DNA of 61,342 bases, the filler included, from Stramenopiles sp. TOSAG23-6 (lineage: Eukaryota), in assembly GCA_900128565.1 (NCBI GenBank). It is 12 parts of 12 records of this genome, joined end to end, with 100 filler letters (N's around TTAATTAATTAA, not from the genome) between each part and the next. Parts side by side here need not be neighbours in the genome. Positions count along the whole stretch, not along the records: positions 1 to 5,052 come from LT636982.1; positions 5,153 to 10,201 come from LT636983.1; positions 10,302 to 15,343 come from LT636984.1; positions 15,444 to 20,483 come from LT636985.1; positions 20,584 to 25,620 come from LT636986.1; positions 25,721 to 30,746 come from LT636988.1; positions 30,847 to 35,855 come from LT636989.1; positions 35,956 to 40,963 come from LT636990.1; 4 more parts are not named here. One strand, 5' to 3'. Position numbers and translations under genes: made by a program. Below the pieces are notes generated by a model. It was not told the origin of the DNA and made no database searches. It worked only from the letters and a program-made list of their open reading frames with translations. Each line of letters opens with the position of its first letter. Positions within the stretch are counted from its first letter, which is position 1. Below, piece after piece: positions 57-61,253 of this stretch.

Positions 57-658
57 AAGGATTACTAATGCACTGTATCAAGCACAGTTGATCAATAAAG
101 GTGGAAAAATTGTTATTATTACTTCACAAGCTGGTTCAATTTCCTGGCGCGCTCATCAAAACCCCAATGGTGATAATTATGTACGCGCTAATCACTCTTT
201 TTCATCATATATTTCATTTTTTTTCATCGGAAATTTCATTTCTAACAAATTTCAAATTTGGCATTTTTTTTGTGAGCCACATGGTCACCATATGAGTCGC
301 TCTGCGACAAATATGATGGCAAAATTACTTTCATTTGAAATGAAAAATCATGGTTTTCCTGTTGCTTTATTACACCCAGGATTTAATAAAACTACAATGA
401 CTAAAAAATATGAATCTATTTGGGATGTTGAAGGTGCGGTAGACCCAGAAATCGGTGCCATGTATGTTTTATTTTTTTTTTTACAAAAAAATCGAATTTA
501 TTTTTCATACGAAATTTTGTACGTAATAAATTTTTTTAGATTTTTTTTGAAATATTTTTCCAAAATACATGAGAGTTCTTCATACAATCAATCAAGTAAA
601 TATGGAAAACTCTGGAGATTTTATAAATTGTGAGGATGGGCTATTAATACCGTGGTAA
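57..658 (+). CDS. Short-chain dehydrogenase/reductase (CsgA-like), 5'-partial; exons 57-180, 283-461, 571-658
   Basis: Spliced product reads KIVIITSQAGSI...GDNY|GHHMSRSATNM...VALLHPGFNKT.MT...GAM|RVLH...SGDFINCEDGLLIPW*, matching the CsgA-type SDR C-terminus. Obtained by removing GT..AT introns. Confidence 0.85.
181..282 (+). other. Non-canonical GT-AT intron (diverged family member)
   Basis: gtacgc...tctaac...gagccacat; removal joins DNY to GHHMS. Confidence 0.8.
462..570 (+). other. Non-canonical GT-AT intron (repeat family)
   Basis: gtatgttttatttt...catacgaaattttgtacgtaat...ccaaaatacat; removal restores the frame to the conserved ...IPW* end. Confidence 0.85.
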
Positions 659-983
659 ATTGGTAAATTGGTAATTAATTTGTCAATTTGTATGACTGCA
701 AAATGGCAAAATATCTCTTTACTTGAAATTTCAAAAACAACAACAATGATACCAACATTTGATATATTTGAATGATATATGAATTGATTTTTATAATTTA
801 TCTTTTTAATTCAATAAAATTTCATATTTGATTTCGGATACTGTATTTTTTATTTTCAATTCTGAGCATACCTTATAAATAGATTTCTATCCATTAGTTC
901 AATTTTTTTTTACGTAAAACTTTTATTTTTTTCGTACGAAATTTTGTACCTAACATTTTTTTTCCAAGATTTTTTTTTTCCTG

Positions 984-1493
984 TTATCCAACATTGGTTG
1001 CTTGTATCCATAGTATCGTACTGATAAAAAAAGAGACGCTCAAAGATGCTAATGAAACATAAGTTACCCGGATATCATAAAGTGGCGATGTCGGTGGTAG
1101 AGGACCTTTTTGTCTTAGAATTGCATTTATTTGAGTTTTTCTTTTATTCTTTAGTTCTTCGGCATAAGGCGGAAGAGTTTTATCAGGTTTGTCTTGTTCG
1201 GAATCAGAAAAAAAATCATCACCAGAATACTCCCCATACGGATCTATTGATTTTCCTTTCTCTTTTTCGTCTCTTTGTGACTCATCCCCAGAAAATTCTG
1301 ACCTTGATGCTGATACACCCGCTTCAATATCTAAATTTTGTTGTTCTTGATCATTATATATATCCGCTTCTAATTGACGGTCCTCATCATATATATTTTG
1401 GTCATATTCGCCAGGGGAGGTAGGAGAACGAGATCTTGAAGAGCGTGATGAAGAACGCGAACTTTCTCTTCCATAGTCAGGATAGTTGGACAT
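984..1493 (-). CDS. Hypothetical acidic protein with C-terminal hydrophobic segment
   Basis: 169-aa ATG-initiated ORF; no family recognised. Confidence 0.55.
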   Translation of the reverse strand: MSNYPDYGRESSRSSSRSSRSRSPTSPGEYDQNIYDEDRQLEADIYNDQEQQNLDIEAGVSASRSEFSGDESQRDEKEKGKSIDPYGEYSGDDFFSDSEQDKPDKTLPPYAEELKNKRKTQINAILRQKGPLPPTSPLYDIRVTYVSLASLSVSFFISTILWIQATNVG

Positions 1494-6309: not shown

Positions 6310-9300
6310 ATGGATAATCATTCCGCACGAAATATTGGATTATTTCCTTCTATTAGTCGTCATTCTTCGCCAGCAGTACCTTATAAAAATGACACCAATA
6401 CAAATAGTACAAAATCAACGAAAACGAGTACAGTAAGTTCATCCCCTGATAGTGTATTGAGCTATGCTCATGGTATAAAAACAGCAGCACAACGATCATC
6501 AGAACGTCACAAGACAAGTCTTGTAAAAAATTCTCGCACAGTCTCACGGAATAGTGCCAGACACATTCTCAGTCGATCACAAGGGAAATCATCACATTCT
6601 GGACAATCTCATTCTGGACAATCATTTAATACAACATCAAGATATCGTCCCAGAACAAATCGAGTAAGTTTGTTGACTAAACGAGGACACCGAAGACTTC
6701 ATGCAAAATCAATTCCATTATCACCAGATTTTATAAATAATCGTCCAAAGTCTCACCATATTTCTTCGTCTTCATCCTCTCAAATAATCAACTCTACATT
6801 TAATCAATATGGACTATATACCAAAAATAGTAAATATAATAAGGTAAGTATAGGAATGAGTGGTGGTTCAAATCGTTTGAGGCATAAATATTTACGTGAC
6901 AAAAATGGGAAAAAATTAAAAAACACAAAAAACACAAAACATTCAAAAAATATTANAAAAAAAAGAGACTTTTCTAAAGATACTATTCAACGTGGATTGC
7001 GAAGTACAACAAGTCATAGATTATATAAGAAGAAAAAACCATCTTCACCATATATTTCAAGATTACAATCATCAAATACGATTGTGACCAATGGAATTCT
7101 CTCTCAAGACGGAAATAGAGGGTACCCGGTAACATCATCTCGTTTTTCTACAAAGTCAACAAAATCTCATTTGTCATCAAGTCATAGTAATACTAATTCC
7201 ATGCAGAGGTCAATAATGTCTCCTACTATATCTCATACAACATCTCACAATACTCATGATAAATTACAAACCAAAACACGTGGCTTGAGCAGAAAAAAAA
7301 ATTCAAATTTTCATTGGAATTCTCCGAATTTTAAAAAAAATAATTTGAAAGGTAGTTTAAAAAATCGAACAGGAATAAAAAATGAAGATCAAAATGTGTA
7401 TACATATTATACAAAAAGTATTCAAAATATAAAAAATGCACAAAATATACAAAATGTAAAATATTCAGTAAAAAATACAAAAAATACCAAAAATACCAAA
7501 AATACCAAAAATACAAAAAATNTAAAAAATAATAAAAATAATAAAAATTTGTCAACAAATTCACAAATTCGACCAAGAACATATCGTATAAAAAGACCTC
7601 TGTCAATGCGTGATACAAAAGATTTGAGTTGGCGTCGTGGACGAAGTGCTACAAGTACAACAGATTTTGGCACTTCACAGTTTTCTAATTTGACTCGAGA
7701 TACACCAAAAAATCGTAAAAATCATCAAAATATAAAAAATAATAAAATTGTACAACTTGGCGATTTGGAGAGATCAGGTTGGTTGTATCATGATGCTAAA
7801 ATAACACGAAATCTTGATAATTTATTAACAGCTGCATCAAGTGCATCTTCTGTTGTGTCGATGATGTCAAGACTGAATAGAGAAAAAGTTGTTTGTACGT
7901 TTATTATCTTACAAAACTACAAAATAACTACAAAATAACTACAAAATAACTACAAAATGTTGTGTATTCTAAAAAAATGTTTTTTTTTTTTTTTAATTTT
8001 TAAATTTTTAATTGAACCCTAACCCTAACTCATGAATGTTTTTTCTACAATCTAAAAATATTTCTTGTCATCACATGGAGTCGAGTTTTTTATAGATTAG
8101 AAAGAAATTCATTAAAATTTTATGCTTCAGAACACAACAGGACAAAAACATCACCAAATCCAAACAATGTACGTTTTATTTTTTTTCAATTTTGAGTTTA
8201 TTTTTTTTTTTTTCATAGTAAATTTTGTACCTAACAATTTTTTTTTTTTTTTTTGAAAAATTTTTCCAAAANNNNNNNNNNNNNNNNNNNNNNNNNNNNN
8301 NNNNNNNNNNNNNNNNNNNNNNNNNNNNNNNNNNNNNNNNNNNNNNNNNNNNNNNNNNNNNNNNNNNNNNNNNNNNNNNNNNNNNNNNNNNNNNNNNNNN
8401 NNNNNNNNNNNNNNNNNNNNNNNNNNNNNNNNNNNNNNNNNNNNNNNNNNNNNNNNNNNNNNNNNNNNNNNNNNNNNNNNNNNNNNNNNNNNNNNNNNNN
8501 NNNNNNNNNNNNNNNNNNNNNNNNNNTTTTTTTTTTTTTTGGTTTTTTATAAAAATTTTGTACCTAACAAATTTTTTAAAATTTTTTTGAAATATTTTTG
8601 AAAATACATGGGTTACTTTAACAATAATAACTGATACTAAGTATGACTATGTTCGATGGTTTGAAAGTCTTGCTGCCTTTTTGTTTAGTTCTAAACAAAA
8701 AGAAAATAATTCTTTACCTGCTTCTAATCTAGACAATATTAAAAATAATATTAAAAATAATATTGAAAATAATATTGAAAATAATATTGAAAACAATATT
8801 GAAAATAATATTGAAAATAATATTGAAAATAATATTGAAAATACAAAATTGAATACAGATGAAAAAGAACACAATTCTTCTAACACAGAGCATTTTGTCC
8901 AAAAGACAATTTCTGTGATTCCGGAGATAAAACCGGTTGAAATCTTGACAGCAACGTCTTTATTAAATACTCACGATTTTTCAGAGATCTTACCTACCAT
9001 GGTGCTTCCAATGTATGTTTTATTTTATTTTTTTTCGAATTTATTTTTTTATAGTAAATTTTGTACCTAACGAATAGAAGGTTTTTTTTTTTGAAATATT
9101 TTTCCAAAATACATGGCACCGACAATTCGAGCAAAGCCAATATTACCCGGTACTCTTTCAAATAATCAACAAATTACTATGAATGAGATTGGAACAACAC
9201 ATGATGGTATGACATCACCAAATTATGATATCCCAAGTAATGTTGGTGTGTACGTTTTCTTCAATTTCATTTTTTTTATAATTTAATATTTTTTCATACG

Positions 9301-10201
9301 AAATGTTGTACCTAACGAGTTTTTTTTTCCAAAAAAAAAAAAAAAAAAATATTGTTTTATTCTACATTGATATTGGAATGGGAAAACGTTTAATGATGGG
9401 CCTAGCTTCAGTATCACAAAATAGAATTCGTGCGGTATCAAGTCATATATGTTTTATTTTTTTTCATTTTTGATTTTTTTTTTTTATAAAATTTTTTTTT
9501 TCGTACGAAATTTCGTACCTAACAATTTTTTTTTTAGAAAATTTTGAAATATTTTTCGAAAATACATGTTGCACCAACTATTTCAGAACGTCGTGAAAGA
9601 ATTCGATTAGGCAAAAATATTTGTTCAAGTAATCCAAATAATACAACAAAAATCAGTAGAGGTCAACAGGTTCGTGCTATCCCAGAAACATTATTGAAAG
9701 CTATCCGTGATGCAAATAATGCTGAAAATAATAACAATAGTGACATTGAAAATATAGGTCAGAAGAATGACGAATCAGTTGAACATTCTGATGAGAAGAA
9801 AAAAGTAGACAAAAATACAAAAAATACAAAAAATACAAAAAATACAAAAAATACAAAAAATACAAAAAATACAAAAAATACAAAAAATACAAAACATACA
9901 AAAAGTGAATTTTTTGTGAATAGTTTTGAAAATATTGATGAAAATATTGATGAAAATATTGATGAATATATTGAAAATACAAAAAATACAAAAAATACAA
10001 AAAATACAAAAAATATTCATATTATAAATAATGGAAATAATGGTATGCATAAAGACAAACCAGCAGTGCCAAGTAGAATTTCAAAAAGTTTTCATATAAT
10101 ACAAAAATCTATTATAACAAACGTAAAAAGTGATAGTTGTAGCACATCGCTTGATTCAGATGAAAAAGAAGAATTAGTTGTGCCCGATTGTTTAAGTACA
10201 A
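6310..10201 (+). CDS. Multi-exon low-complexity protein with a PH domain, 3'-partial
   Basis: ERSGWLY...VV|WSRVFYRLERNSLKFYASE...YDYVRWFESL after removing introns 7895-8076, 9013-9114 and 9250-9367 (GT-AT) and 9447-9567 (AT-AT); internal N gap. Confidence 0.7.
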
Positions 10202-10302
10202 NNNNNNNNNNNNNNNNNNNNNNNNNNNNNNNNNNNNNNNNNNNNTTAATTAATTAANNNNNNNNNNNNNNNNNNNNNNNNNNNNNNNNNNNNNNNNNNN
10301 NT

Positions 10303-13300
10303 GTGATGTTTATTTCTGGTGATGATGTAATGTGCGTTTTCTTTTTCCTTTTTCCTGCAAAAGATGGTGGTAACTTTAAGGCGTTGTCAAAGTGGATAGG
10401 AAAAGGGAACACTAAAACGAGTGCAGCTGCTGAAGCCCAAGTTTTGCGAAATATTTGGGAGGCAATAAATCCGTTCGTTTTGCAACAATCTTCTAAAGCA
10501 ATGTCGTTAGTAATCCCTCGTAGAGTGTTGTATAGATTACAGTGTCCATTGAGCTTTAAACAGCAATCGCTATACCAGACATTAGCGAAAAAGGCAGGTC
10601 AACAAATAAAGCCTTTGTTTGGTACATTGGATGTAAAGAAGAAAAAAGGGAAAAAGTCAAAAGGTAGTTCCATGAAGTCAGTGAAGCATTTGAAAGGAGC
10701 ATCATTGATATCTCTCGTGAGCCTTCTACATAGTGTATCGCATCACCCAGCGATTATTGAAGGTGATTCTTCGGGTTCGCTTGCGGAATCTTCATTTGTG
10801 CAAATGCAACGCATAATATTCCATGCATCAAAACTGATATTATTGAATTCTACACCATTTGGGGCGGCTTATCTACCTGGTGTACCATTTTCTCCGTCGG
10901 GACTAAATGTTGTAAATAGTTTAAATCTTCTTGGGCTTGGTTTTATCATAACTAATTTAGAAAATAGTTCAAATTCTTCATTACTTGGAACTTGTTCATA
11001 TGATGTGAGAGAAAGGCGAAGAAAAATATCAAAGGTATGTGATGGCACAAGAAATAATGATGAAGCAGTTACTATTGCCGAGCAGCGTAGCGCTTCATAT
11101 GGTCGAAGATTTTTGTATGGAATACCTAAAAAGTTTGAATCAATCTATGATTTACGAGATGGATCAGATTCTCCTGTGTATAATAATAATAATCAATTAG
11201 CAGAAAGTAAAAGATCTCTTGTGTGTCCAATATATGGTCGTATGTTGCGCGATAGAGTAACTGTTGGATTACAATCACATATAATGGGTGTAGAAAAGTA
11301 TAGTACGGATTTTACGTTTCGTAGTATACTAGAAAAAAGAAAAAATAGTTTTGCTGGCAAAAAATACGCTAGAAAATGGATTTCTCATACACATCCAGCG
11401 GAAGATATGATTATAGTAACTCATCAATCAAAGTACAAATCAGTCCTAGATAGACTTGAGTGTACTAATATAGTATTTCATCCAGTTTGTGCATTTCCGC
11501 CTCGAATGGCCATTGCATCAGGTGTTCCAATCACAGGTTTACCTCGTGAATGTCGTCGTTATTCAAATAATATCATCACAGAATTATCTAGAAAACTTTC
11601 AGTATATGGCGAGTCTTTATTGCGCGTCTCACATCCTGGTCATTCTGCAATGGCCGGAAGTAAGCTGAAAGCAGCTCTCCGTATAGTTCGAGTATGTAAT
11701 AGTGGATATAGAATGGATGGTAATGTTCTAGGAAATATATTTCCCACTGATTCATCGATTTCGCGTACACAACGTAAAAATCGTAAATGTATTATATCTG
11801 CCTGGAATAGGACAATGCTTGATCAGATGTGTAGTATACTAAGTGCTTCAAGAATTACTTATCTCAGGTTTACACCTAGTAATGATAGCAATGATGTACC
11901 GCCAAGCTATATCAGAAAATTTAACAGAAATTCAGCGATTAATGTTTTTGTTTTACCTATGACTTCAAAAATTAATATGGAAAAGTTTCCTCTCATTTCG
12001 TTGTGTACGACTATTTTACTTGACAGTGATATGGCAAATGGTCTCGAAAAAGCAAAAAGCAGTCCATTATTGTGTTCGATTTCAGAACCATGGATAAATA
12101 TGTCTGTGTATTTGATATCATCTATTAATGAAGAAAATAGTGATGGCGACGTCATCAAAACGATTCGTAAATTAGAAACAGCTGTCGTAAAAGAAGGGGG
12201 GATTTCACACTCTCTTGTGAAGCGCGTCGATACATCATTATTAGATTCAGTGTCTGCAAAAGACGTAAAGACTAAAGCCAAGAAACAAACAACCAAACCA
12301 AGAGCAAAAAGGAAGCGTGGTGCAAGTACAAGTCCTTCCACTAGTGGTCGTTCTAGGGGTCGAGGTAAACGACAAAAAGTATCTGTAACTTCTGAAAAGG
12401 AAGGCAGCTCAATCGATGATGCGAGTAGTAACTCTTTTTCGACAACTTCTTTAGAAGCTAGTAATGAAATGGAGGAAGACATTGTCATTTCAAATGCAAC
12501 TATACGCTCTGAACACAGTGTTTTGGATTACGGTGTTTCTTTTGTCTCTAGTCGTGGTATATTAGATATATGTAAAACGAATAGTCATTACAGATCAAAT
12601 ACTACTACGCTGCAGCAGCACCTTGATACATTATGTGGTATAACCAGAAGACCTGACTCGAAGGATACTGAGTCTACTAGAGAAGTTCAATTAGTGAGTG
12701 CAACGAATAGTTTTTTATCCACTCAAAATGATTCAAAATTTTCTTCTACGGATCCAGCCAGTACCTCGATGATAGGACAGAAGGACAAAAGAGACAACAC
12801 AATTATAGATTCTCTCAGTCACTCTGATTCTGAATTATTTTACAGTGTTCCTGGAAATGATGGTGTTTCATGGATGAATCGTTTACAGTTGGGTTTCAAT
12901 CAAGAAATATTTCGACTCAATAAATGGCTAAAAATAGATCGATTTCTTGGAATATATGGTCCGCCTTTACTACCACCATTAAAACCTAAACATATGAATC
13001 AAAAAGAAAAGAAAGATATTGATGTTATGATACCTCCTTGGACTAATGAAGTTTCTTGGAGTGTCCCTGTTGATGTTACTTATGGAAAAAGTGACAATAC
13101 TAAACAAACGAAACTAGATGTGTATGGTTGTCCCAAAGTTAAAAAGACAGACTCAGAAGAAGTTAAAGAGTTATGTATTAAAAGTTTTATTCGAAAAGAA
13201 GATTCTGACATTTACAATGATCCGATGTATATAGATGGAGGGAAGGAATACATGGAACCGTCGGCACCTTTACGAGATAATAACTCATATAGTAGATACA

Positions 13301-28193: not shown

Positions 28194-28228
<35 letters not shown>

Positions 28229-38448: not shown

Positions 38449-38528
38449 TTCCAAGACGAGGTTAGTTTGCAAAGAATTATATACCATAATATATATTTTC
38501 TTGTTATATTAATTCATTAAACCGAACT

Positions 38529-46013: not shown

Positions 46014-46306
46014 GTATGTTTTATTTTTTTTCAAATTCGATTTTTTTTTCGTACGAAATTTTGTANNNNNNNNNNNNNNNNNNNNNNNNNNNNNNNNNNN
46101 NNNNNNNNNTTAATTAATTAANNNNNNNNNNNNNNNNNNNNNNNNNNNNNNNNNNNNNNNNNNNNAGTAATTCATATATTGTGAAACATATTTTTTTTTT
46201 TGTGTTTTTTTTTTTTTTTTTAAAAAATTCAAAAAAAAAAACATTAGGGAAAAAATTTCCTAAAAAAAAAAACAAAAAAAAAAAAAAAAATGAAAAAAAA
46301 ACATAC

Positions 46307-46691: not shown

Positions 46692-46797
46692 ATGTATTTT
46701 GAAACAATATTTCAAAAAAAAAAAAAAAATTTNGTNAGGTACAAAATTTCGTACGAAAAAAAAAATAAATTCGAAATTGAAAAAAAATAAAACGTAC

Positions 46798-47962: not shown

Positions 47963-48241
47963 TGTTGTTCTCTGAAGAGTATTTTAATGATAGGTACAAC
48001 AAGTCACTGGTAATTATACAAAGGCCAGCTTGTTTTTCTGCTGTTTTTCTTGGAGTCAGTCAATGATTTGATGGATTTGATTAGAATCTGATTTGATTCA
48101 AAATCACCCACGCACGAAATCGGGTACCATCACATTTTCACATCTAGAAATGCATAAATTATCTGAACAATTTTAAGTATCTTTATAAGCTCTTTATTAT
48201 AAAAAATAATTTTGAACTTCTTTATTTATGGTACTTGTATA

Positions 48242-51101
48242 CTACACTGTCAAATTATTAAGAAAAGGATTTTCTTCTTTCACTTGTTTCAAAACATTTA
48301 GCCCAATATCAGTGAAAACATTACCATGGAGAAAAAGATGCCTTATTGTTTTATTGACTCCCAGGATTTTTTTCACATTTTTATTAAACTTTGATTCCTT
48401 TATTGATTTGTCGAATTTTTCCTTTGGACGTCTTATTTGAGATCGATGTACTGAATTAGAAATATTACCATCATTATATTGAATACAAAAATTATCAGTT
48501 GGTTCACCTTTCCGATTGAAACGAATTTTAGTAATGTATTTTGGAAAAATATTTAAAAAAAAATCGTTAGGTACAAAATTTCCTATAAAAAAATAAATTC
48601 GAAATTGAAAAAAAAAATAAAACATACATAACTCCGCCATAATAGATTCTTGGATTTCCTCGGTATTGTGCTTCACATTTCATACCTACAGTCCATGGAA
48701 TTTTAAGTGGTGTAGAGGGGGCTTTTAGTCCAAAATCATGACCCAAACCTAAAATTTTTGCAAATCTCTTGGCCGTATCATCTCGAAGGCCATTTTTAGA
48801 TAAGTCCAATTCAACTAACGTTGTATTTACAGATAAAGCAGCAGCAAGAGACGATGCACCGTCATCTCCAATTATATTCTGTGCAATATGTAAGGTTTCT
48901 ATTTTTGTTTTTTTGTTCTCCAAGGCTCTAGCGATGCAATATGCTGTATGGGTACCCATAGAATTATTACTAAAGTCAATATTTCGCAATGTAGTATTTG
49001 TCTGCAAAGCTTCACCAAGTTTCTCTCCTCCCTCTACTCCAATGGAGTTGTACCCCATGTCAAGCGTGAATAAACCTGTATTGTCTACTACTGCTTCCGC
49101 AAGAGATGTTGCCCCATTATCGCGAATACCATTACTACTTAAACGGATAATTTCTAGTGTGCTGTTAGACCGAAGAGCACGAGCAATATGTGCAGCACCG
49201 ACACATCGTATACCATTACTAGAAAGATCTAAAGAAGTGAGAGTTGTATTTTCTAATAGCATATTGGCTACGGCTGAACTACCTTTGTCGTAATACAAAC
49301 CCGCCATGCAACCCATGAGACACAATGATTTTAAAGTTTGATTCCCTTGTAATGCATTTGCTAAATGTACCAAGCCCTCCGCTTCTATTTTGTTATATGT
49401 GAGATCTAGTTCAGTAAGCACAGTATTTTCACGGAGCATTGCTGACATGTGCAATGCCCCCTTCTCCCCGATTGCACCACCAGGTATCGAAAATATTTTA
49501 ATATTTGGATGTTTGCGTAATGCCATTGCTAATGCTACTGCCCCTGTTGGACCAATTCGAGAATGAGTCATACTTATTTTACACAAAGCGTCGGCATTCC
49601 CTGTATGGGTTGTCAAAGTTTCGGCAAGTAATTCTGCACCATCTGGACCCACAGGCGCAAGTTTTAGATCAACTTCATTTGTATTTCCATCTCGAATATT
49701 TCGAATCCATCTGGGGCATAATTGACTCCGAATTTTCTTTTTAGACTCCTGGTCGCGGTTCACTTCTGGTAACCAAGAAGCTGCATGTATTGTGAAAAAA
49801 TATATTTTTATTTTTTTTTGTTAGGTACGAAGTTTCGTACTAAAAACAAAATTTGAAATTGAAAAAAAATAAAACATGCTACACGTTTTGTATCGAATGT
49901 CTGATTAGCAGATCTTTCAGAACCCCGAGCCGGATTCTTTCTCAGTTGCCCTCGTCTTGTAGCGGCTCGAAATCGCTTATGATCAGGAAGTGGTACTGGT
50001 AGAATTTCTCCACCAGATGCAAAGTCTCCAGCAACGGCAGCTTTACCGTATACCCTTTGTTTTTCAGCAAGATCATGAGCTTCATTTGCGGCATTATTTA
50101 ATAACAATGTATCTTGTCGTTCTCTTTCTCGAGCTTCAATTTCTTTTTTAATTCTTGTCAAATGTGAACGACCAAGCTCACCGAATCTTTTCCATGTATT
50201 TTGGAAAAATATTTCAAAAAAAAATCGTTAGGTACAAAATTTCCTATAAAAAAATAAATTCGAAATTGAAAAAAAAAAAAAAACATACATGATGGAACGC
50301 CTGGTAAACGTGCCATTCGAAGATTTACATTATTGGTTTTATTCACAGATGTTTTAGACTCATTCGTTGAATTTTTAGACTCATTCGTTGAATTTTTAGA
50401 CTCATTTGTTGATACTTTAGGCTCATTTGTTGAATTTGACAAACTTTCACTTTCATGTATTCTTGACGCTTTTTTTTTCATTGATATTTTCAGTTTTTTC
50501 TTTTCAATCCTGGCTTTTCTTTTCTTGTCAAGCTTATATACTTTTGTTTTTTTACGTTTTGGGACTACAGTGACAACTACGCGAACACCTTCTTCAATTA
50601 ATGCATCTATTATACGACGTTTATATTTCATAACGGTTGTCTCTCCAAATTCTTTTATGAGTTGTAATGTATTTTGGAAAAATATTCCAAAAAAAAAACT
50701 CAAAATTTGTTAGGTACAAAAATTCGTACGAAAAAAAAACTTCGAATTTGAAAAAAAATTAAAACATACATTTGATAAGCCGATAGCTCTTATTGGATAT
50801 ATCAGCCATTGTTGATAAAACTCTTGCGTGTCGAACAACATCTGGCTCCTGCATTGTGTCTCGTTTATTCGTTTTTTTTTCAGTTGCTAATTGAGACAAT
50901 GATTTATTTTGATTATCCATTCTGTCAATTTGATGCCGAAAGAAATCCTTATGAGTTTGTGCCCGTTGACATTGGCTACTTGGGCGAGACAAAAACTCTT
51001 CGCTATATACACTACTTGGACGATCTGTTGATTGTTCATTAAGAGTTTGTTCAACAGAGAATTGGTTTTGAGAATTTTCTTGGATTGTTTTTATGGCCAG
51101 A
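48242..51101 (-). CDS. RNI-type (NLRC3-like) LRR protein with an embedded Tudor-like domain, multi-exon, 5'-partial
   Basis: 28-aa LRRs (NTTLTSLDLSSNGI..GA..IA.AL); CEAQYRG..YYGGV|ITKIR...FCIQYNDG; introns 48534-48627, 49785-49879 (GC-AT), 50194-50288, 50667-50769. Confidence 0.8.
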
Positions 51102-51259
51102 AGGTATTTTGGAAAAATATTTCAAAAAAAATTCTAAAAAATTTGTTAGGTACAAAATTNNNNNNNNNNNNNNNNNNNNNNNNNNNNNNNNNNNNNNNNN
51201 NNNTTAATTAATTAANNNNNNNNNNNNNNNNNNNNNNNNNNNNNNNNNNNNNNNNNNNN

Positions 51260-51338
51260 CCGCTGGAGGGACTTGAACCCCCACTCTTTATAGAACCGGC
51301 TTCTAAGACCGGCGTGCCTACCATTCCACCACAACGGC
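51260..51338 (-). tRNA. trnL: tRNA-Leu(TAG), 3' end clipped by contig end
   Basis: gccgttgtggtggaatggtaggcac...ccggtct TAG aagccgg, long variable arm, ggttcaagtcc T-loop; bacterial/organellar style. Confidence 0.85.
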
Positions 51339-51644
51339 TAAGGAAAACGGCAGTAAGCTAGTAACCAAAGCACCAGCGCTGAACGAGCTGTTGGTAGTTG
51401 GGTAAACCCCAACTTCACCCAACTGGCCGGCTCCGGCCGGGCCCGACCCCGTACCCAAGACAACCCCGGCCGGAGCCAATACCCCACACCACGCGTGCCC
51501 GCCTAAGCCCACACCTGAGAACCCCCAAGGCCTTATACCCATAACTACCTAACTGACAAAGCACCGGAAGGAGGCCCCACATTTGGGGCCAGATACGAGG
51601 CCGACCTTGGGATAACCCTTACCACTGCCTAGGCCCCCACCAAC

Positions 51645-51717
51645 TGCCTGCATTGGGTCTCGAACCCAAAACCCTCGGATTAAAAGTCCGATGCTCTGCC
51701 AATTGAGCTATGCAGGC
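51645..51717 (-). tRNA. trnK: tRNA-Lys(TTT)
   Basis: 73-nt cloverleaf gcctgca-tagctcaattggcagagc-tcgga ctTTTaa tccga-ttgggttcgagacccaa-tgcaggc a. Confidence 0.93.
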
Positions 51718-51944
51718 CAAACCGGCAGGGCCTGATACGGCCATGACACCCGGGCAAACGAAGGACGAAGAAGAACGAGGTGCCGGCGATAGAAGTTGCG
51801 AGGGCCGCAAGATTGGCAGAACAAAAGGTTACAAGCTAACCCGGCCCCTAACCCCGTTAAGCCGAGCGCGCCAGTGTTAGCCCAGCACTACACGGGGGTA
51901 GACTACGGGCGCACGAGCTAGAAGAAACTAGCCTACCCCGGAGT

Positions 51945-52278
51945 CAACAAAAAAGATGAATTTGCTCCACAACAGCAATGTGCCAACCGGAGGTGGCGTA
52001 CCCCAGACCTACGTGCTGCGTGTGCTAAACCAATCTTTAGGGGGTAAAACACCCCCCATACGGGCAGCTTACCCGAGAAGCCCTAAAGCCCAACCAAGCC
52101 CTAACCCAGAGCCCACAAAAAGATAGGCCCGCCCCACAACAGCAACGGGCCAACCGGAGCTGGCGTACCCCAGACCCACGTGCTGCGTGTGCTAAACCAA
52201 TCTTTAGGGGGCAAAACACCCCCCATACGGGCAGCTTACCCGAGAAGCCCTAAAGCCCACCCAAGCCCTACCCCGGGC
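51945..52278. repeat. Tandem duplication, 167-bp period
   Basis: gccaaccggag...gtgctaaaccaatctttaggggg...ccctaaagccc starts at 51982 and 52149. Confidence 0.9.
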
Positions 52279-52319
52279 CTACAGCTAGGAACCCAGGCCC
52301 GAAGACACGGGATGACAGA

Positions 52320-52367
52320 GCCCATCCAATTAACGGCCGGACACCCTACCACTGAGCTATGACGCGC
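52320..52367 (-). pseudogene. tRNA-Asn(GTT)-like 5' portion lacking a T arm
   Basis: catagctcagtggtagggtg tccgg ccGTTaa ttgga, with no TTC loop downstream. Confidence 0.5.
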
Positions 52368-55300
52368 AAGACCCCCCACTAGAGCTGGGGCGACCCACGA
52401 GTCCAGTGCGTCGGCAGGGGCTGTTGGGGCCCTCAAGTGAGCCCAGGTAAACTTAAGGAAATAAAAGGGAAATCACCCCTACAAAGGAAGCTTAAGGGCG
52501 GGGGTGCCCCAAGACCCGCTGTGCTGTAGCCCAAACACACTTACCCGTTCCCGACGCACGCAGGCTTTATGACGGAGGGGCAACATGCCCTGACCCGCCC
52601 CCATTCAAGCACAACCCCAAGTTCCCCGAACCATAGGGTTTATAGGAAGTAAGGTAGGTTAAAGCTTGCTAAAAATGACAACACCCAACCCCTGACCAGA
52701 GCCAGCCCAACTACCCAAACCAAAGCATAGGCCAAAACACAGTGCTTTAGGGCCTGCCTTTGCCAAGGCGGACCTCACCAACAAAAGCACTCCCAGCACT
52801 TGGATACGACCGCCGCCACCCCAGTCCCAACGCCGCAAAAGCCCCGTGACAAACGGAGGCACCAACAAAAACGGCCGGCTCGAAACCAGGCCTACCCTAG
52901 TTCACCGGGGTTAGGCCGATCGCAGTCGGAGGGAGTAAGAAAGAAAGGTTAGCCGGACTGCCAACTCCCAACCCGGACAAGTAACAGACGTCTCGGCTGG
53001 TTTTATGCCCCTCTCAAGGTACCTAAGGGCCAAAAACCGGAGTAACGGCTAACAACGGCCAAACACCCTATCACCAGGCGTGCAAGACTGACCTTCGCTG
53101 CGGTCGCGCGAGGTAAGACCGTGGCTAAACAAGGTTTCAAAAGCCTAACAACCTTCTCGGACGTAGTGCCCCAAGAACATTAAACTCTGGCACCAAAAAA
53201 GCTTAGCTAAAAATGGGCTGACACTGCAGACCCGGCACGGAGTGAGCTCGATAACAAGAGCCTACCCGCCCCTATCATAAGGCAGGAGTTTCGCTCTCTG
53301 ACCCAAAAAACCGCACCACACCAGCTTATGGGCCTTACTGACACCCACAGACCCCTAGACAACGGGCCAGCCTCGTCAGTCGCGTAGCTGCCAAGATCAA
53401 GGAACTTGTAGATGCACCCTAACGGGACTCAACCGCCCGGAACAGCCCAGATAACGTGCGAAAGTCTTTGCTCACACGATGTTTACCCCCTTTTGGGTAT
53501 ATGCTTACTTATTAGCCACGGGCTTCTTCGTGATTAATTGAGGACCCAAAATTGGTCGACCACCTCAGACTAAACATGACGGCAAGAGAGGGCCTACTAT
53601 ATTAGCTATTCTAACCAGAAGCGGAGTTGAAGAACCCTAGAACTCACCCCCAGCCTATCACTACTGACACAAGGCCGACGCAAAAGGATAAGACCGTAGA
53701 CGGTTACCCAAAACCGCACCTCAGAATAGGGCCCAATACGTATAGGTAACCAGAAGAACCTTTAGTGCGTTGCCCCAACACCCTTTCCCACTAAAGTAGA
53801 AACTGTATGCTCTTTAGAGGGTCCAAAAAATACGCGTACGCCCAGTACCACCTATAACCCATAAGCCTAGCTACCGCACCAAAAAAACTGTACCCCACAA
53901 ACAATCAAGTAAGGCAAATAAGGAAACCCACACACCCCCAAACCGAGCCGCAGATGTCACAGCTCAAAACCCTTTCAGACTGTACCGGGGCTTACTTGAT
54001 TTAATAAAGATGCCACCCTAACCTCCCGGACTCGCGTGACCTTAACTAACCTAAAAAAAGCTTCAGGCCCAAGCCCATCCCTCAAAACTGTGGAAGTGCC
54101 AGGACCGCTTACGAAGTAAAGGCGGCGATAAAATCGGCTAAGATCGTAAGGTTGCGGCAAAACCGCACGACCTCCCGTAGATTAGCCGGGTTGGTTGCTA
54201 AAACAACAGATCCTACAAGCTTACACCACCTAAACCACCCCGCTCCAAGACGGCTCCGCCCCTCACACCCTAACACGGGGCTGACCTCTGCCAAAAGCCC
54301 CCCTGCATACAGGAGACGATAGCCAACCCGTCTTTTTATGCTACACCTTAAACGGAGTAACCACTCACACCAGTTACGTGTTTTTTAAAACTCCTAGGCT
54401 AAGACGTCTTATCTCCCAAAACCATACACTGCTACAATGCCCTTGGGCTCTGAAGCGTGCCTAAACCTACGTAACACTTAGGAACAGAATCTCATAAACG
54501 ACCACTCTTAGGCCAGAATGTGAGAACACCTCACGCCGCTAACGCATAACGACCAAACCCGAAGAAGTAGGCCCCCTACATCTAACCTAAAACCCCCTAA
54601 GACCTCAAACAGGGCCTTGGTACAGGTTAACGAAAGACCTACACCGTAGGCTAGCTAAGCCTAAGCCCTAAACGTGTACCTAAGAACCAAGAACCCCCCC
54701 CNAACCCACGAGTGACAAGCAACACACAGTAACTATTGCTAGACTAACTCTCGCATGTGAAACAACCAGAGCACCCTAGGAACTCATAAGCACGCACGGC
54801 AACACACGGAGCGGGTGGCCGACGCCTTACCCCCAACCTGACGGCCACTAACAAACCACCTGGCCCCAAACAATGGCCCACCCGAGCCTAAAAAAGAGGA
54901 ACAAGCAGCTCCTATAGTTTTAGGAACCCCTCTAAAGTCAGGTTGTAAGAACCTCTGTACCATTAAAAACCGTAGCCCAGAAGAGTACGCACCAAAAGTA
55001 AAGATAAAACGAACTAACCTGGGTAAGGAAAAGTACGCTTCCTACCTTTAATTTTTAAGACTGAGGTGCTGTTGGCGCACCACTCCCATAAAGTTAGATA
55101 AACGACAATACTATAAAAAATCTGAGAGAGGAAAAAACGTAAACCCCTTTGTACCTAACACGAACTCCTAAACCGTTACAGTATAAAACGACCCCAACCA
55201 ACACACCCAATACAGAGGTTGTTTAAAGGATTGATGGTGTATTTATACCTTTATAGACCACAGGTTAACTACCCAATTTCAAAGAACTCAAGGTAAGCAC

Positions 55301-56404
55301 AAGCTGCGACAAGAACATATGCGCACCCCCATACCGTTAGGGGAGCTTAAACCCCGATCCTTTTGATTAACGACTAATAATTAGGTGCGCTACCACCAGG
55401 CCCTACCACCGAACCCTATCGTCGAGCTCTACCACAAGAACCCTTACCTGGCAGAATAAAAACACAGGCTATCACTAAAGCCCAGCCGAGTTAATCAAAC
55501 TTTTTAGACATCCGAGTAAAGATTGGCCGCCTGACAAAGTTTTCAAAAATTTAACCACTTTTGAGTACCGTGAAGTCTGGGTAAACTCCGCTAAACACCT
55601 TTGTTAGAAGAGATAAGTCTCAACCATACCCACCTAAGGTCCCTACCGAACCCCATAAACCCTACTGCATTAACCCCAGTAATCCCTTTGTGTTGCTTAT
55701 CCAAGGGTTAGCCAAACTAACTATACTAGATAATCACTTGTGTTTCAAACGAGGGTACAACCCCCGTAAGGAATATTTATACAAAAACCGTTAAAGCACT
55801 TACGCCCACCCAAGAAGAGTCGCAGTACTGTGACCCACCCCAGACAAGCACCAACTCTTAGCCAGTAGGTCAGCCCCACCAACTATGTAACCACCAGACG
55901 CAAACGATTTGGTACTAGATGTGGGCAGGAGACCAACCACCAAAACTAGCTCGCCTAACGCACGCGCCAATCTTTGTCCTCGTGATGGCTTCTTCCCTGC
56001 CCGTGCCCCTATTTTGACGAGCCAACGTGTTTACGCGTGCCCGCCTACCCGGGCGGCTAGGCTCCTGCTAAGATGTAATAGTAACCCCCAGAGCGTCGGT
56101 AGACATGAAACTAGGTCGTAAGCTGACTAGCTACCCCAATAACTACCACGTACCCTTCGCTAAATTAACATAACACTGCTTGAGCGGGTCCCTTTATATC
56201 CGTAATCAAACCAAACGTTATCGTATATAAGCCACGCTTACACAAGACTTTNNNNNNNNNNNNNNNNNNNNNNNNNNNNNNNNNNNNNNNNNNNNTTAAT
56301 TAATTAANNNNNNNNNNNNNNNNNNNNNNNNNNNNNNNNNNNNNNNNNNNNGTACAAAATTTCGTACGAAAAAAAAATCGAATTTGAAAAAAAATAAAAC
56401 ATAC

Positions 56405-57300
56405 ATTCATATTATCAGTCCATTTTTGTGAATATGTTAGACTCTTTTTTGTATCTTGCGTTTCGATGGTAAACTCTTTGGAAAATATATTTGTCAATTT
56501 GGCACCATCTGTATTGTGGAAAAAAAAATTTTTAGTAAAAAAATGCATTAGGTACGAAATTTCGTACTAAAAAAATAAATTTGAAATGATGAAAACGTAC
56601 ACCCATGACGTCCTCCAGTGTATTTTGAAGCTTCATCGGTGAAATTTGATCCAGTGAGTAAATAACCAAAAACTAATTGAGGAATATAAATCTTTTCTGT
56701 TTTATGCTTACGAACAGGGACACCTTTCCCATTATTCCAGACAGAGATTTTAGGTCGTTCTGTCTCCATGTATTGTGAAAAAATATTTTTTTTTTTTTCG
56801 TAAAAAAAAATCGTTAGGTATAAAATTTAGTACGAAAAAACAAAATTCGAAATTCAAAAAAATAAAACATATATGTCTTCCAAGTTTACTTCAATTCTAT
56901 TTGTGTTTTTATCACGCTGTACATTATCCACAGCATTGACAAGGATCTCATCAAATATTTTATATAGACCTGGATTAAAATCCACAGTCTCTTGTGAAAA
57001 ATGAACTTTTCCAGATTTGGGTTCGTTTAATACCCATAACTTTTCATTTGCAAGAGTATTTACTGAACCAATATACATGCCTGGCCGAAGTAAAACATGT
57101 TCCACAGGAGTTTTACGTTGATATAACTCTGCAGATAATTCTCGAACAAGTTTAATATTATTTACTTTAGTTCTTCTTGGTGTTGACGAAGAAGCTTCTG
57201 ATCTCAAAGTGGGGGTTGTGGTGTAAAATCTACCACCAACACGTGAAATGAAAATACCACAGTCATAGAATGCGCGGATATACCGCTGAGATTGTTGCAT
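56405..57300 (-). CDS. TOP2: DNA topoisomerase II, N-terminal ATPase exons, possible mitochondrial presequence, 3'-partial
   Basis: YQRKTPVEHVLLRPGMYIGS, GLYKIFDEILVNAVDN, ISVWNNGKGVP, LLTGSNF, GGRHG|YGAKLTNIFS, WTDNM; introns 56768-56872 (AT-AT) and 56509-56600 (GT-AG). Confidence 0.95.
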
Positions 57301-57610
57301 CAACAGAAAGTACAAATTAACGATAGCTAAATACTAACCCCTTTTCAAACATTCATTCTTCAAATATACAGGATATACTAACCAATACGACGGGTGGTGA
57401 ATATATAATATAATGAGCCTGCCCTTAGTCAAGTTCTAAAGAATTATTAATTAATTACTACTACCTTCATTCATCGATCATCAATGTCCATCGCGATTCG
57501 CGAATGATGGCCAATTTTCTGATCGCGGTCAAAATTAAATATTTTCAAATGACTGGCCGATTTGCTATTCTTGAACGCGAACACGTCTTTTTCTACAAAG
57601 AAAGTGTAAA

Positions 57611-58648
57611 ATGAATGCACGCAAACGCACAAAACATGAAGAAGAGGTCATGCAAAAAGTTCTTAGCGGATTAGGTCCTGCTATTGTGATCACAAGTTTC
57701 TTATGTCTGGAAGATCGACTCTCAGGGAGAGCTGTGTCAAATGATAAGCATAGACCTTGGATGGTTGGTGTTGATTGGGGTGGTGTGTCGTGTACTGAAA
57801 CAGTGAAGCACAATGGCTTTGAATTTTTCAAGTACTTAAGAAGCCAAAAACCACCTTGTCCTTGGGATGAAGAAACATGTCATTGGGTAGCTGGAAATGG
57901 TTGTTTAGAGGTATTAAAATGGGTAAGAAGTCAAAATCCACCTTGTCCATGGGATAGCTGGACGTGTGCTTATGCAGCTGAAAATGGTCACTTAGAAGTA
58001 ATGAAATGGATAAGAAGTCAACATCCACCTTGTCCATGGGATGAAAATACGTGTAATTATGCAGCTGCAAATGGCCATTTAGAAGTACTAAAATGGGTAA
58101 GAAGTCAAAAACCACCTTGTCCTTGGGATGAAGAGACGTGTTCTTATGCAGACGTAAATGGTCATTTCGAAGTGTTGAAATGGGTAAGAAGTCAAAATCC
58201 ACCTTTTCCGTGGAATGAAAAAACGTGTCATTATGCAGCTGCAAGTGGTCACTTGGAAGTATTAAAATGGTTAAGAAATCAAAATCCACCTTGTCCATGT
58301 GATGAAATTACGTGTTCATATGCAGCTAAGAATGGTCACTTGGAAGTATTAAAATGGTTAACAAGTCAAAATCCACCTTGTCCATGGGATGAACGTACTT
58401 GTCGATATGCAGCTGAAAAAGGTCACTTGGAAGTATTGAAATGGTTAAGAAGTCAAAATCCACCTTGTCCTTGGGATGAAAATACATGTCTTTTCGCAGC
58501 TAAAGATGGTCACTTAGAAGTATTGAAATGGGTAAGAGGTCAAAATCCACCTTGTCCATGGGATGAAAGGACGTGTCGATATGCAGATGAAAATGGTCAC
58601 TTAGAAGTATTACAATGGTTGAGAAAGATGGGAGCTCCAGGGTCTTGA
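57611..58648 (+). CDS. Ankyrin-like repeat protein (PPCPWDE.TC..AA..GHLEVLKW.R type), intronless
   Basis: About ten 27-aa (81-bp) tandem units. Confidence 0.9.
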   Translation: MNARKRTKHEEEVMQKVLSGLGPAIVITSFLCLEDRLSGRAVSNDKHRPWMVGVDWGGVSCTETVKHNGFEFFKYLRSQKPPCPWDEETCHWVAGNGCLEVLKWVRSQNPPCPWDSWTCAYAAENGHLEVMKWIRSQHPPCPWDENTCNYAAANGHLEVLKWVRSQKPPCPWDEETCSYADVNGHFEVLKWVRSQNPPFPWNEKTCHYAAASGHLEVLKWLRNQNPPCPCDEITCSYAAKNGHLEVLKWLTSQNPPCPWDERTCRYAAEKGHLEVLKWLRSQNPPCPWDENTCLFAAKDGHLEVLKWVRGQNPPCPWDERTCRYADENGHLEVLQWLRKMGAPGS

Positions 58649-59019
58649 GAGAATGATTCAGTTTCGTTTCCTGAATCTTCATCAAATTCATCTTCTGAAG
58701 AAGAATAATAAAATCACATTCATTTCAAATGTAGGCTATATATTTTAAAATAATGAATCAAAAATATACATTTTGTGTAAATTATAAAATGAATGAGTCA
58801 AAATAAATTATATTTCAATAGCAATATTTTTACATTTAGCATTAAATTATACAATAAATTTTGTCAGATTCACATTGTTATTTTTTTTTTACTACCAACT
58901 ACGTGTACTAATTTGATACTAATTTTCACGTCATTTAAAAAACAAAAAAATGTTTTTTACAGAAGAAGAAAAAGAATAATTTGGAAAATATTTTATTTTT
59001 AACCCTAATACTACTCTGT

Positions 59020-61253
59020 TTACTCTTGGATTTTATTCTTGTGATTTAAATAAAATTCACATAGTGCAATGCAAATAGCCAACTGTTTTTTTTTTATTTC
59101 AAAAAATTCATATTGCTGAATTACATCTTTATGCATTTTTCGAGTTGTTATGTTGATATCTCCTATTGGAATTGCTTCAAAAATGGACTTACTTTGAGAT
59201 CTTTTTTGTTTCAGCAAATGTAATGCCTCTACATATATTGTGAAAAAAATATGTTTTAAAAATTGTTAGGTACAGATTTTGCTATAATTTTTTTTTTTTT
59301 AAATTGGTGTTGAAAACATACATGAATCTCTATACTATCATTGATGATGTTAGTGTTAGCTTTTCCCCCCTTTCTCATTCCATCTTTCTGTTTATTAATA
59401 TACAATTCCAATGCATCGATTTTGCTATTTATTTCCTTCATATATATTGTGAAAAAATATTTTTTTTTTGGAAAAAAAATGTTAGGTACAAAATGTAGTA
59501 CAAAAACAATTTCAAATTTTGAAATTGAAAACGTACATGTGTATTCTCAAATCTCTTTGTGTGATGATTTTCTAACTTTGTTTTCTCAAGCGATTTGAAT
59601 AGTTTATATTTTTTACGTCCAACTGACTCTAATGAAGAAACACAAAACTGTTTCTCCTTTTGTAATTCATAAAGATATGAAAGAACTTTTGATCGATACA
59701 TGTACTGTGAAAAAATATTTTAAAAAACATAATTTGTTAGGTACAAAAATTTTTATGAAAAATAAATAAATTTGAAATTCATGATGAAGACGTATATTTT
59801 GTCTGTACTATTGATTTGATGTTCCTCTTGGGTAGATTTTTCGTGTAATTTATCAATTAATTTTCGATTCTTTGTTCTTAAAAATGTTATATCTTTATTA
59901 CGATTATATATATTTGTTGAATATTGCTGACATCTTGGACATATAATTCTTTGTGTTTTGGAAAGAGAATATAAATTGTGAATAATATTTTTTTTAGTAA
60001 AAATACTTTGTTAGGTACAAAATTTCGTATGAAAAAACAATTAATTTTCAATTTTGAAAACGTACCATCAGTCGTCTGAAAAGAAAAAGCATGGTCCTGG
60101 CCCGCAACAATCATAAATCGCCTATATGTTTTCCATATACCTTCACCTGAAATTGGATCCCAATCTTCATGTAATATATTGGAACTCATTCTTAAATTAT
60201 CATCTGAATATTTTTTGAATGCTTTCATCAATTTTGGCGAAGCTAGAAATTTACTACATTGGTCATGTCCAAGTTGACCATGAGAGTTGTTTCCCCAGGA
60301 GTATATGAATTGTGAAAAATATTTTTGTTTGGTGTAAAAAAAATCGTTAGGCATACAATGTTTTGTTGTACAAAAAACAAAAATTAGGTGAAAACAATTA
60401 ATTTTGTTAGGATTAGGATTAGGATTAGGATTAGGGTGATAAAAGCATACACTGCATTGATAGCATCGACAGCCACTGAGAAATTTCGACCTAATGAAAC
60501 AAAACAACAACGACGTTGAGGACCTCCACGGGTCTTTTGTGTGAATATTCCTCGTATAGGAAACGGAGACTTTTGATATCTAAAATGTCCAAGGCCAAGT
60601 TGTCCATGTATTCTAAGGGAAATATTTCAAATATTTGATGTCAATATTTTTGTTAAAATTTTCTATGAAAACAAAATCAAACACTTCAAAAAAAAAATTA
60701 AATTCATTTGAAAGCCTTTGATACCATACATGATCATTTTTCCCCCACATATATAAATTATTTGAACTTTCATTTGAAATCGCAGCATAGTGATTCTTTC
60801 CAGCAGCAATGTAAATTGCTAATGCATTTAATGTGATGTTTTTACCAGTTGAAGATGACGTCAATTTATTAATCAACTTCAATGAACCATCCCAAAATAA
60901 AATCAAAGTTCCATTTGAAGAACAACATACTTGTCTCACAATACTTCCATCAATTCCAGCTGACATGTATTGTGATTTTTTTTTTTTTCACGAAAAAAAA
61001 TCGTTAGGTACGAAATTTCGTATGAAATAAAATTTAATCATTAGGTAAAAAAGAAAACATACATGGAAATTCTCTCACTCCCTTTTAATGGTATCGACAC
61101 TTCTGAAAATTCTCTTGACATTGTTGTATCTTTATGTAGAGGTAAATTATTTTTATTTTTTAATTTTTCTTGCCTTTTGTTTTTTTGAGTTTGCTGAGTT
61201 TGCTGAGATTCAGAAAGTTTTGAAGTTTTACCCCATGTGAAACAACACAAAAC
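59020..61253 (-). CDS. RCC1-repeat protein with coiled-coil C-terminus, multi-exon, 5'-partial
   Basis: LYMWGKNDH|GQLGLGH, YSWGNNSHGQLG; GT-AT introns 60965-61062 and 60606-60729 plus several further family copies. Confidence 0.7.

Follow-up and report, generated by a model that had tools for sequence, protein, structure and literature searches.

Few signals in eukaryotic gene expression are as constant as the 3' AG, and U2-type introns of the Saccharomyces type read GUAUGU ... UACUAAC ... YAG. Introners are known from Micromonas, Aureococcus, Symbiodinium, Polarella and others, where they occur as hundreds to thousands of near-identical short sense introns in unrelated genes (Gozashti et al. 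2022, PMC9860276; PMC11282704), and in the part of the pan-eukaryote introner survey used here their borders are GY-AG, with only the rare 5' variants GC and GA tabulated (PMC9860276). Transposon-derived introns with non-canonical ends have been described in Fritillaria borealis (AG-AC, AG-AT), in Amoebophrya and in euglenids (PMC11282704). In Physarum, the U12 small nuclear RNA (snRNA) and the branch motif co-evolved, and GT-AT and AT-AT occur as minor-spliceosome variants (bioRxiv 10.1101/2020.10.12.336362). Here we analysed a stretch of 61,342 nucleotides (the window) from Stramenopiles sp. TOSAG23-6 (GCA_900128565.1), in which coding exons are interrupted by copies of one short sequence, mostly running from GT to AT. 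We consider it likely that these copies form one family of mobile introns, removed by a U2-like spliceosome to which a 3' AU is acceptable.

A profile was built from 19 copies, and the whole window was searched with nhmmer at a threshold of E<=0.01. The search gave 55 matches, every one in AT-rich contigs, and no match in the contigs at 10302-20483, 35956-40963 and 51260-56251, which hold long uninterrupted open reading frames (ORFs) or no ORFs. The segments between exons are copies of one sequence, not diverse introns, 89-133 nucleotides (nt) long, with the consensus (C)AT/GTAYGTTTTAYTTTTTTT...TTTTTCGTACGAAATTTYGTACCTAACRA..T-run..GAAATATTTTTCCAAAATACAT/G, the slash marking the exon border; a second subfamily has the end TTTTTTCACAATACAT. 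Both ends of 30 copies were mapped on profile coordinates and the copy at 31650-31543 was read by eye, giving 31 complete copies, with 24 GT-AT, 2 GC-AT, 3 AT-AT and 2 GT-AG termini. An earlier note on this DNA had counted 22 GT-AT, 2 GC-AT, 2 AT-AT, 1 GT-TT and 2 GT-AG; the pattern is confirmed, the exact counts are not, and no GT-TT copy is among the 31.

In the 30 profile-mapped copies, the 5' dinucleotide was GT in 25, GC in 2 and AT in 3, the first intron base was G in 27 and A in 3, and the 3' dinucleotide was AT in 29 and AG in 1. The 5' motif GTAYGT or a close variant (consensus RTAYGTTTT) was present in 25/30. The branch-like TACCTAAC (TA(C/T)(C/T)TAA(C/T)) was found in 25/30 copies with its second A 33-53 nt before the 3' end, in agreement with the motif noted before at ~30-50 nt in most copies, and T runs downstream of it were seen in the family alignment. 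At the 3' end, position -5 was T in 30/30, -4 was A in 29, -3 was C in 25 and T in 5, -2 was A in 30/30, and -1 was T in 29 and G in 1; the intron ends in a near-invariant stretch of seven bases (A A T A C/T A T). When 24 copies were aligned, one of them from another contig source, the T of ACAT shared its column with the G of ACAG. Among the AT-ending copies, 24 carry a branch motif, and 7 of these contain an AG between branch and AT, often as TTTTAG ~10 nt past the branch, which is judged unused because the reading frame says so.

The family appears to supply essentially all introns found in the window. A scan for GT..YAG outside the family gave one plausible site only, at 30386-30493/30498, where an in-frame AT end is also possible and which looks like a diverged family member. 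The copy at 32140-32049 was left out of the counts, its upstream side resembling a chimeric join or tandem copy and its frame being uninformative. The exon after 32049-32252 starts at residue 27 of solved UBA5 with the N-terminal part missing, which suggests a chimeric join via the repeat, and the region is probably such a join.

For each of 31 mapped copies, 32140-32049 included, the three frame classes were compared. Exact removal of GTAYGT..ACAT was the best class in 25/31, with a three-way tie in 2 (32140, 46306), and it was not the best in 4 (41312, 43108, 43548, 46797), all flanked by short exons. With 32140 excluded, it was the best class in 25/28 informative copies, against a chance of 1/3. 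Flanking ORFs were longer on the sense than on the antisense strand in 27/30 copies (medians 69.5 vs 18.5 codons), which bears out the claimed co-orientation with the host gene, and unspliced read-through met a stop in 24/30. Spliced models without stops were obtained for a five-exon gene (51103-48200) and for the TOP2 N-terminus, and long open frames and conserved motifs are kept in the exons of TOP2, UBA5, GlmS, SHMT and Nudix. The view in the earlier note that mostly GT-AT segments behave as introns in conserved, intact genes was thus borne out.

Frame alone leaves the register of the cuts open, because moving both cuts equally keeps the length. At the TOP2 AG copy (56600-56509), the flanking exons leave exactly one residue relative to solved chains (9bq8_A 139/141; 7l6s_A 155/157), and a shift by -2 would alter the split-codon residue; in UBA5, residue 144 of 5l95_A closes the exon upstream of the AG copy (31650-31543) and residue 145 opens the next exon. 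The Pfam NUDIX profile passes from 46 to 48 at the GT-AT copy 24670-24772, with one unaligned residue and no indel. At the GC-AT copy 49879-49785, an RNA contig (record 9 of run X6) retains an exonic TA that an upstream-shifted cut would delete. At copies with non-AT exon ends, homology does not separate GT-AT from the -2 shift, as only one variable residue differs. The GlmS junction at 47076 lies beyond the listed alignments to solved chains and was compared with the MRGR of human GFAT. The sequence details given before, caatacag at 56509, caatatag at 31543, gca/gt at 24670, aa/gt at 28028 and tc/gt at 26607, were all found as stated. The last three copies had also been said to exclude AT-AC introns: their exons indeed do not end in AT, but the exclusion by frame is nominal only, as a -2 shift keeps length and frame, and AT-AC is excluded at other copies, because of the RNA and homology there and not because of frames. 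The GT..AT register is the best supported, short of proof at the 3' side.

One seawater DNA run (X3) and three RNA runs (X6, X7, X8) were compared with one contig, at 46737-51159. In X3, exons and the intergenic spacer had an even depth of ~4-8, whereas bins in intron copies had 1,200-41,000, which puts the family at thousands of copies in that community. X3 is an independent run of another year, and its contigs match the locus at >99% identity and break at, or extend partly into, four of the five complete copies. Record 6 of X3 (1,264 nt, 5 mismatches) spans the copy 49879-49785 with the same GC..AT ends, so that the DNA keeps AT and not AG there, in line with the earlier reading. The same record joins 50288 straight to 50192, with 95 nt of the copy 50288-50194 exactly missing; of the five complete copies, the X3 allele lacks one precisely and has the other four. 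This presence/absence polymorphism with precise borders identifies the family as an introner (mobile intron), and the absent copy indicates that the unit gained or lost equals the unit spliced according to the frame. AT-ending introns do dominate, as had been proposed, not as the introns of the genome in general but as one homogeneous high-copy introner family with its own AATACAT.

A contig from another metagenome, L003, carries a copy that most resembles the one at 47076 but lies in a different gene and with the borders CAT/GTATGT..CACAATACAT/GG. When metagenome_contigs was scanned with a 19-nt branch-region pattern, 4 loci were obtained and a full copy in L003 only; the other 3 were rejected as short chance matches, and the host lineage is nearly absent from this collection. 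L003 also holds, at 409-536 (+), a candidate non-family intron with GTACGT, the branch GTACCTAAT and a possible in-frame CACAG end; in-frame AT and AC ends are near.

Across the 30 mapped copies, the upstream exon had C at -3 in 14, A at -2 in 21 and T at -1 in 22, and the downstream exon had G at +1 in 18/30; C at -3 and G at +1 are enriched, so that both junctions look like CAT/G. Three origins of this signature are conceivable: duplication of a 2-bp AT target, the preferred target being palindromic; insertion by reverse splicing with a preference for proto-splice sites; or the 5' site itself, of which it would be a part. Where the exonic AT is lacking, the intronic AT is still there, and the two therefore do not co-vary. 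X3 contains contigs with tandem copies as well, the 5' end of one copy starting no more than ~2 nt after the 3' end of another; among the joints listed, those from 48629/48630 to 50193/50194 occurred in 11-21 contigs each. This suggests that copies insert at the borders of existing copies, which recreate the CAT/G site. The consensus ends are complementary (AT+GTAT vs ATACAT, 85% of cells pairable), terminal pairing showed no covariation beyond chance (316/500 shuffles equally high), and RNAalifold gave 0 pairs and no conserved structure for the family; we tentatively interpret this 6-nt complementarity as an inverted repeat at the termini and not as a helix in the RNA.

Removal at the RNA level was seen in part, from two contigs. 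Record 9 of X6 (151 nt) matches 49877-50003 with zero mismatches and then leaves the genome with 24 further letters; that it runs three bases into the intron is what a GC..AT cut predicts, since intron and following exon both begin with GCA. Record 15 of X6 departs from the genome at the border of the copy 51159-51104 (it stops at 51103). Among the RNA contigs listed, none passes from an exon of this locus into its intron. Most bins of the stretch had no RNA cover and are uninformative, and X8 gave 5 records, none informative for the locus. Intron depth divided by a copy number of a few thousand was well under the exon depth of this gene in X6, not in X7. The transcript check of junctions proposed in the earlier note was thus answered in part, two RNA contigs leaving the genome at intron borders, but intron-bearing RNA contigs are present too.

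Several observations weigh against splicing from GT to AU. We know of no support, in the spliceosomes that have been studied, for second-step pairing of G(+1) with U(-1). The upstream exon ends AT in 19/30 copies, where GT-AT and AT-AC yield an identical messenger RNA (mRNA) and are indistinguishable. Homology does not fix the TOP2 AT-AT junction, since the loop around it has 3 residues more than that of solved homologues. The RNA support consists of two short contigs with depth 2 and 4.6, whose far sides are 24 and 45 letters, and the 3' AT cut itself is unseen in RNA. Intron-bearing RNA contigs are many, intron bins reach a depth of 430 in X6 and 9,900 in X7, and in some RNA contigs (X8 record 27, X6 record 11) a copy is joined to an exon of another gene; this may reflect splicing that is inefficient or incomplete, introns that are stable, or DNA or pre-mRNA carried over. 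At the copy 51159-51104, CT comes after ATAC, and this CT is retained in X6 record 15, as it would be if either the cut lay behind ATAC or the upstream exon had a terminal CT as well.

The main rival is a diverged minor (U12-type) spliceosome, whose snRNAs co-evolved with the motifs and which tolerates A or G at +1 and different 3' bases. It would suit a 5' base of G or A (27 and 3 of 30) inside a long conserved 5' motif and the highly conserved branch motif, and GT-AT (17%) and AT-AT (8%) are given among the commonest non-canonical U12-type borders in Physarum (bioRxiv 10.1101/2020.10.12.336362). However, the 5' motif is GTAYGT (consensus RTAYGTTTT) and not RTATCCTT, the branch GTACCTAAC is separated from the 3' end by 33-53 nt that include a T tract and is not a TCCTTRAC close to the end without a tract, essentially all introns found in the window apparently belong to the family, and the GT..CAG candidate of L003 shares the GTACGT and GTACCTAAT motifs; we regard this rival as unlikely. 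A U2 complementary to the branch sequence UACCUAAC, without minor snRNAs, is the U2-type expectation, and the reverse is the U12-type expectation. Another reading, which we find improbable, would make the copies AT-AC introns with both cuts two bases upstream (ATGTAYGT...ATAC) and the copies with non-AT exons variants. The A(+1)/C(-1) pair is accepted by known spliceosomes, within the 3' end ATAC varies least, an exonic AT precedes all three 5' ATAYGT copies, and the identical mRNA in 19/30 copies and the ATAC that precedes CT at 51104 speak for it too. Yet its 5' dinucleotide would vary (AT, GT, CA, TC, AA, TT, TG, TA) beside an invariant GTAYGT, the shift at 43548 makes a stop, the two AG copies are cut directly before GTAYGT and after AG, and the exonic TA that it deletes at 49879 is held by X6 record 9 without a mismatch.

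Removal without a spliceosome, by DNA elimination, by euglenid-like structure-guided cleavage or by ribosomal bypass, is very unlikely. The complementary consensus ends and the DNA allele precisely without one copy are what such routes could draw on, but the DNA contig that misses one copy retains its neighbour, no pairs or covariation beyond chance came out of the structure analysis, the take-off and landing codons that bypass needs mismatch in most phase-0 copies, and the sense bias (27/30) together with canonical 5' and branch motifs favours RNA splicing. We give even less credence to the idea that nothing is removed, the host genes being decaying and repeat-riddled or the pattern an artefact of assembly or amplification. 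The assembly is indeed fragmentary, broken by the repeat and with at least 1 likely chimeric join, and intron-bearing contigs occur in the RNA runs; against this stand the long open frames and conserved motifs in the exons of the five genes named above, the same copies at the same loci at >99% identity in an independent DNA run of another year, and the RNA contigs that depart at intron borders.

For splicing of GT..AU introns, the following course is proposed, in which we infer both the major spliceosome as the agent and the way AU is recognised. Every copy would bring its own signals, namely the 5' GTAYGTTTT, the branch motif GTACCTAAC, a T-rich tract and the 3' AATACAT. Copies lying in sense orientation within coding exons, mostly at (C)AT/G sites, would be excised from the G of GTAYGT to the T of ACAT, with the reading frame exactly restored. 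An ordinary U2-type spliceosome would read the 5' site and the branch as usual and use either a 3' AU or a 3' AG in the second step, the 3' site probably being set by the conserved AAUACAU context or by position and not by the last base alone. The AG-ending members in TOP2 and UBA5 (2/31) are cut at the equivalent position, which leaves the re-specified spliceosome suggested earlier undemonstrated; these cuts and the L003 GT..CAG candidate argue for tolerance of a 3' AU or a position-based choice, not for AG having been given up. A bolder reading, possible but in our view doubtful, is that the 3' site is no longer AG-defined in this lineage: the cut would fall in or just after AAUAC(A)U whatever the last base (U, G, perhaps C/CU), AGs nearer the branch would be skipped, and an introner with this signal would have replaced nearly the whole intron complement. 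If true, such AAUAC(A)U-positioned cutting would mean that nature has re-wired how a U2-type system selects the 3' site in the second step.

Compared with described introners, the family shares near-identical sense introns, exact restoration of the mRNA, polymorphism among isolates and an aquatic protist host, and may also share a brief inverted similarity of the termini and a brief direct repeat flanking the element (PMC9860276, PMC11282704). It differs in that introners are described as GY-AG (PMC9860276), whereas 29/31 copies here end AT within a conserved 7-nt terminal motif, and in that the direct repeat is only 2 bp (AT) and missing in 11/30 copies. Fritillaria and Amoebophrya resemble it in the mass gain of non-GT-AG mobile-element introns thought to be spliced by the host, and the Fritillaria 3' end can be AT; there, however, the departure extends to the 5' end and the borders are of many kinds, whereas here the 5' and branch signals are yeast-like, the last base alone departs and the family is homogeneous (PMC11282704, as far as its account of these introns goes). 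With the U12-type introns of Physarum it has in common the terminal pairs, R at +1, long conserved 5' and branch motifs and a large expansion, but those have RTATCCTT, a branch 9-12 nt from the end and these pairs as a small minority, in contrast to GTAYGT, 33-53 nt and the rule (bioRxiv 10.1101/2020.10.12.336362). The Saccharomyces U2 intron has the identical 5' hexamer, a T-rich tract and a similar distance from branch to 3' end, the branch differing by one inserted C; it ends in AG, whereas AU is used here and AGs before it are skipped in 7/24 AT-ending copies with the branch motif. In euglenid non-conventional introns a conserved stem joins the ends, in contrast to the 0 RNAalifold pairs and the terminal helix without covariation found here.

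A full-text literature search, with supplements outside its scope, gave no GT-AT intron family and no such motif in a stramenopile (SI Appendix Table 6 of PMC9860276, with 548 families, could hold a relative). Papers on uncultured stramenopile single-cell genomes and their co-assembly, in the parts used here, mention introns in passing only. The earlier statement that the writer knew of no described equivalent therefore stands as regards this kind of family, but there are close precedents for non-canonical transposon-derived introns. We infer a non-canonical introner with a 3' AU, of the known introner kind, the mechanism being a proposal. About nine in ten of the introns found end AU despite yeast-like 5' and branch signals, and these introns are mobile and still polymorphic, which should surprise the specialist and is directly testable on existing reads. 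The family would let one ask, in a clean natural setting, how the site of the second catalytic step is selected, and would add a case linking transposon-derived intron bursts with relaxed splice-site rules. Gene finders that assume GY-AG will mis-annotate most genes of the lineage, and annotation-based surveys would miss the family. The mapped copies are listed in Table 1.

Table 1. Copies of the intron family in the window, with positions counted along the whole stretch.
Position	Strand	Feature	Remarks
462-570	+	GT-AT copy	upstream exon ends CAT
9013-9114	+	GT-AT copy	profile and frame test
9250-9367	+	GT-AT copy	upstream exon ends GT, not AT
9447-9567	+	AT-AT copy	5' ATATGT
24670-24772	+	GT-AT copy	within Nudix box; upstream exon ends CA (gca/gt); Pfam NUDIX 4-46, then 48-66
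24914-25036	+	GT-AT copy	internal TTTTAG passed over
26499-26607	-	GT-AT copy	upstream exon ends TC
27931-28028	-	GT-AT copy	5' GTATTT; upstream exon ends AA
31543-31650	-	GT-AG copy	UBA5; caatatag; flanks align to 5l95_A residues 27-144 and 145-278, no gap
32049-32252	-	two tandem/degenerate copies	7 nt apart; between RhoGAP-like stop codon and mid-UBA5 exon; ends ATACAC; not counted
33012-33108	-	GT-AT copy	RhoGAP-like gene
41312-41416	+	GT-AT copy	end ATATAT; frame class not best (short exons)
41727-41827	+	GT-AT copy	profile and frame test
41961-42059	+	GT-AT copy	profile and frame test
42251-42343	+	GT-AT copy	5' GTATAT
43108-43209	+	GT-AT copy	frame class not best (short exons)
43284-43379	+	GT-AT copy	top profile match
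43548-43669	+	GC-AT copy	carries TTAGGGTTAGGG insert; frame class not best (short exons)
46174-46306	-	GT-AT copy	adjoins contig end; frame uninformative
46692-46797	-	GT-AT copy	follows CGTSWH of GlmS; frame class not best (short exons)
46974-47076	-	GT-AT copy	GlmS
48534-48627	-	GT-AT copy	profile and frame test
49785-49879	-	GC-AT copy	upstream exon ends TA; in independent DNA; RNA contig departs at 5' end
50194-50288	-	GT-AT copy	missing from X3 DNA allele
50667-50769	-	GT-AT copy	profile and frame test
51104-51159	-	3' part of copy at contig end	ends ..AAAATAC then CT, not AT
56509-56600	-	GT-AG copy	TOP2, between GGRHG and GAKL; caatacag; one residue left for split codon
56768-56872	-	AT-AT copy	TOP2; loop 3 residues longer than solved TOP2 chains
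59233-59321	-	GT-AT copy	profile and frame test
59442-59536	-	GT-AT copy	profile and frame test
59700-59795	-	AT-AT copy	5' ATACGT
59971-60065	-	GT-AT copy	end ATTTAT; upstream exon ends TG
60965-61062	-	GT-AT copy	profile and frame test

The window consists of 12 contigs of ~5 kb each in order of descending length, from an AT-rich stramenopile, with 11 spacers of the form N44-TTAATTAATTAA-N44 between them; the standard code fits its eukaryotic coding content. The named best matches of the SHMT exon were stramenopile proteins (oomycetes, diatoms, a pelagophyte, Cafeteria), and its closest match was a protein 86% identical, encoded on a 1,550-nt contig; the search among stramenopile relatives gave no match to this exon above 86% identity. 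Window sequence was found in 2 small public DNA runs (both of one coded organism), in 3 seawater DNA metagenomes and in 5 seawater poly(A) metatranscriptomes. The host is therefore taken to be an uncultured marine stramenopile, in whose nuclear genome the family would lie.

Contig ends or internal N gaps fall within copies at 2-56, 8169-8271/8550-8609, 41063-41115, 46014-46065, 51104-51159, 56352-56404 and 61254-61342, and from their number the family repeat is what fragments this assembly. Three contigs, in 10302-20483 and 35956-40963, have a GC content of 0.36-0.43, ORFs of up to 1,491 codons and zero family copies, so that copy density is very uneven among contigs. The contig at 51260-56251 has a GC content of 0.51, a strong strand skew, no ORF of at least 110 amino acids on either strand and no family copy. 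At the Rfam gathering threshold, the only matches in the window were 2 tRNAs, both within this GC-rich contig: tRNA-Lys(UUU) at 51645-51717 and a weaker match that extends into the spacer. The contig is unlike the others and may come from another organism.

A telomere-like 13-mer, AACCCTAACCCTA, occurs 12 times in the window against 0 expected, at 5291, 8015, 25217, 25247, 27630, 28861, 28999, 31056, 32355, 43564, 43792 and 47251. Several of these lie in frame within coding exons and give NPNP-type peptides (Nudix C-terminus, RhoGAP-like tail, GlmS insertion), one is located in the intron copy 43548-43669, and L003 likewise carries such repeats. Finally, a 357-codon ORF at 57575-58648 (+) is built of NGHLEVLKW(L/V)RSQNPPCPWDE-type repeats, which we take to be like those of ankyrin-like repeat proteins, presumably common in stramenopiles and giant viruses.

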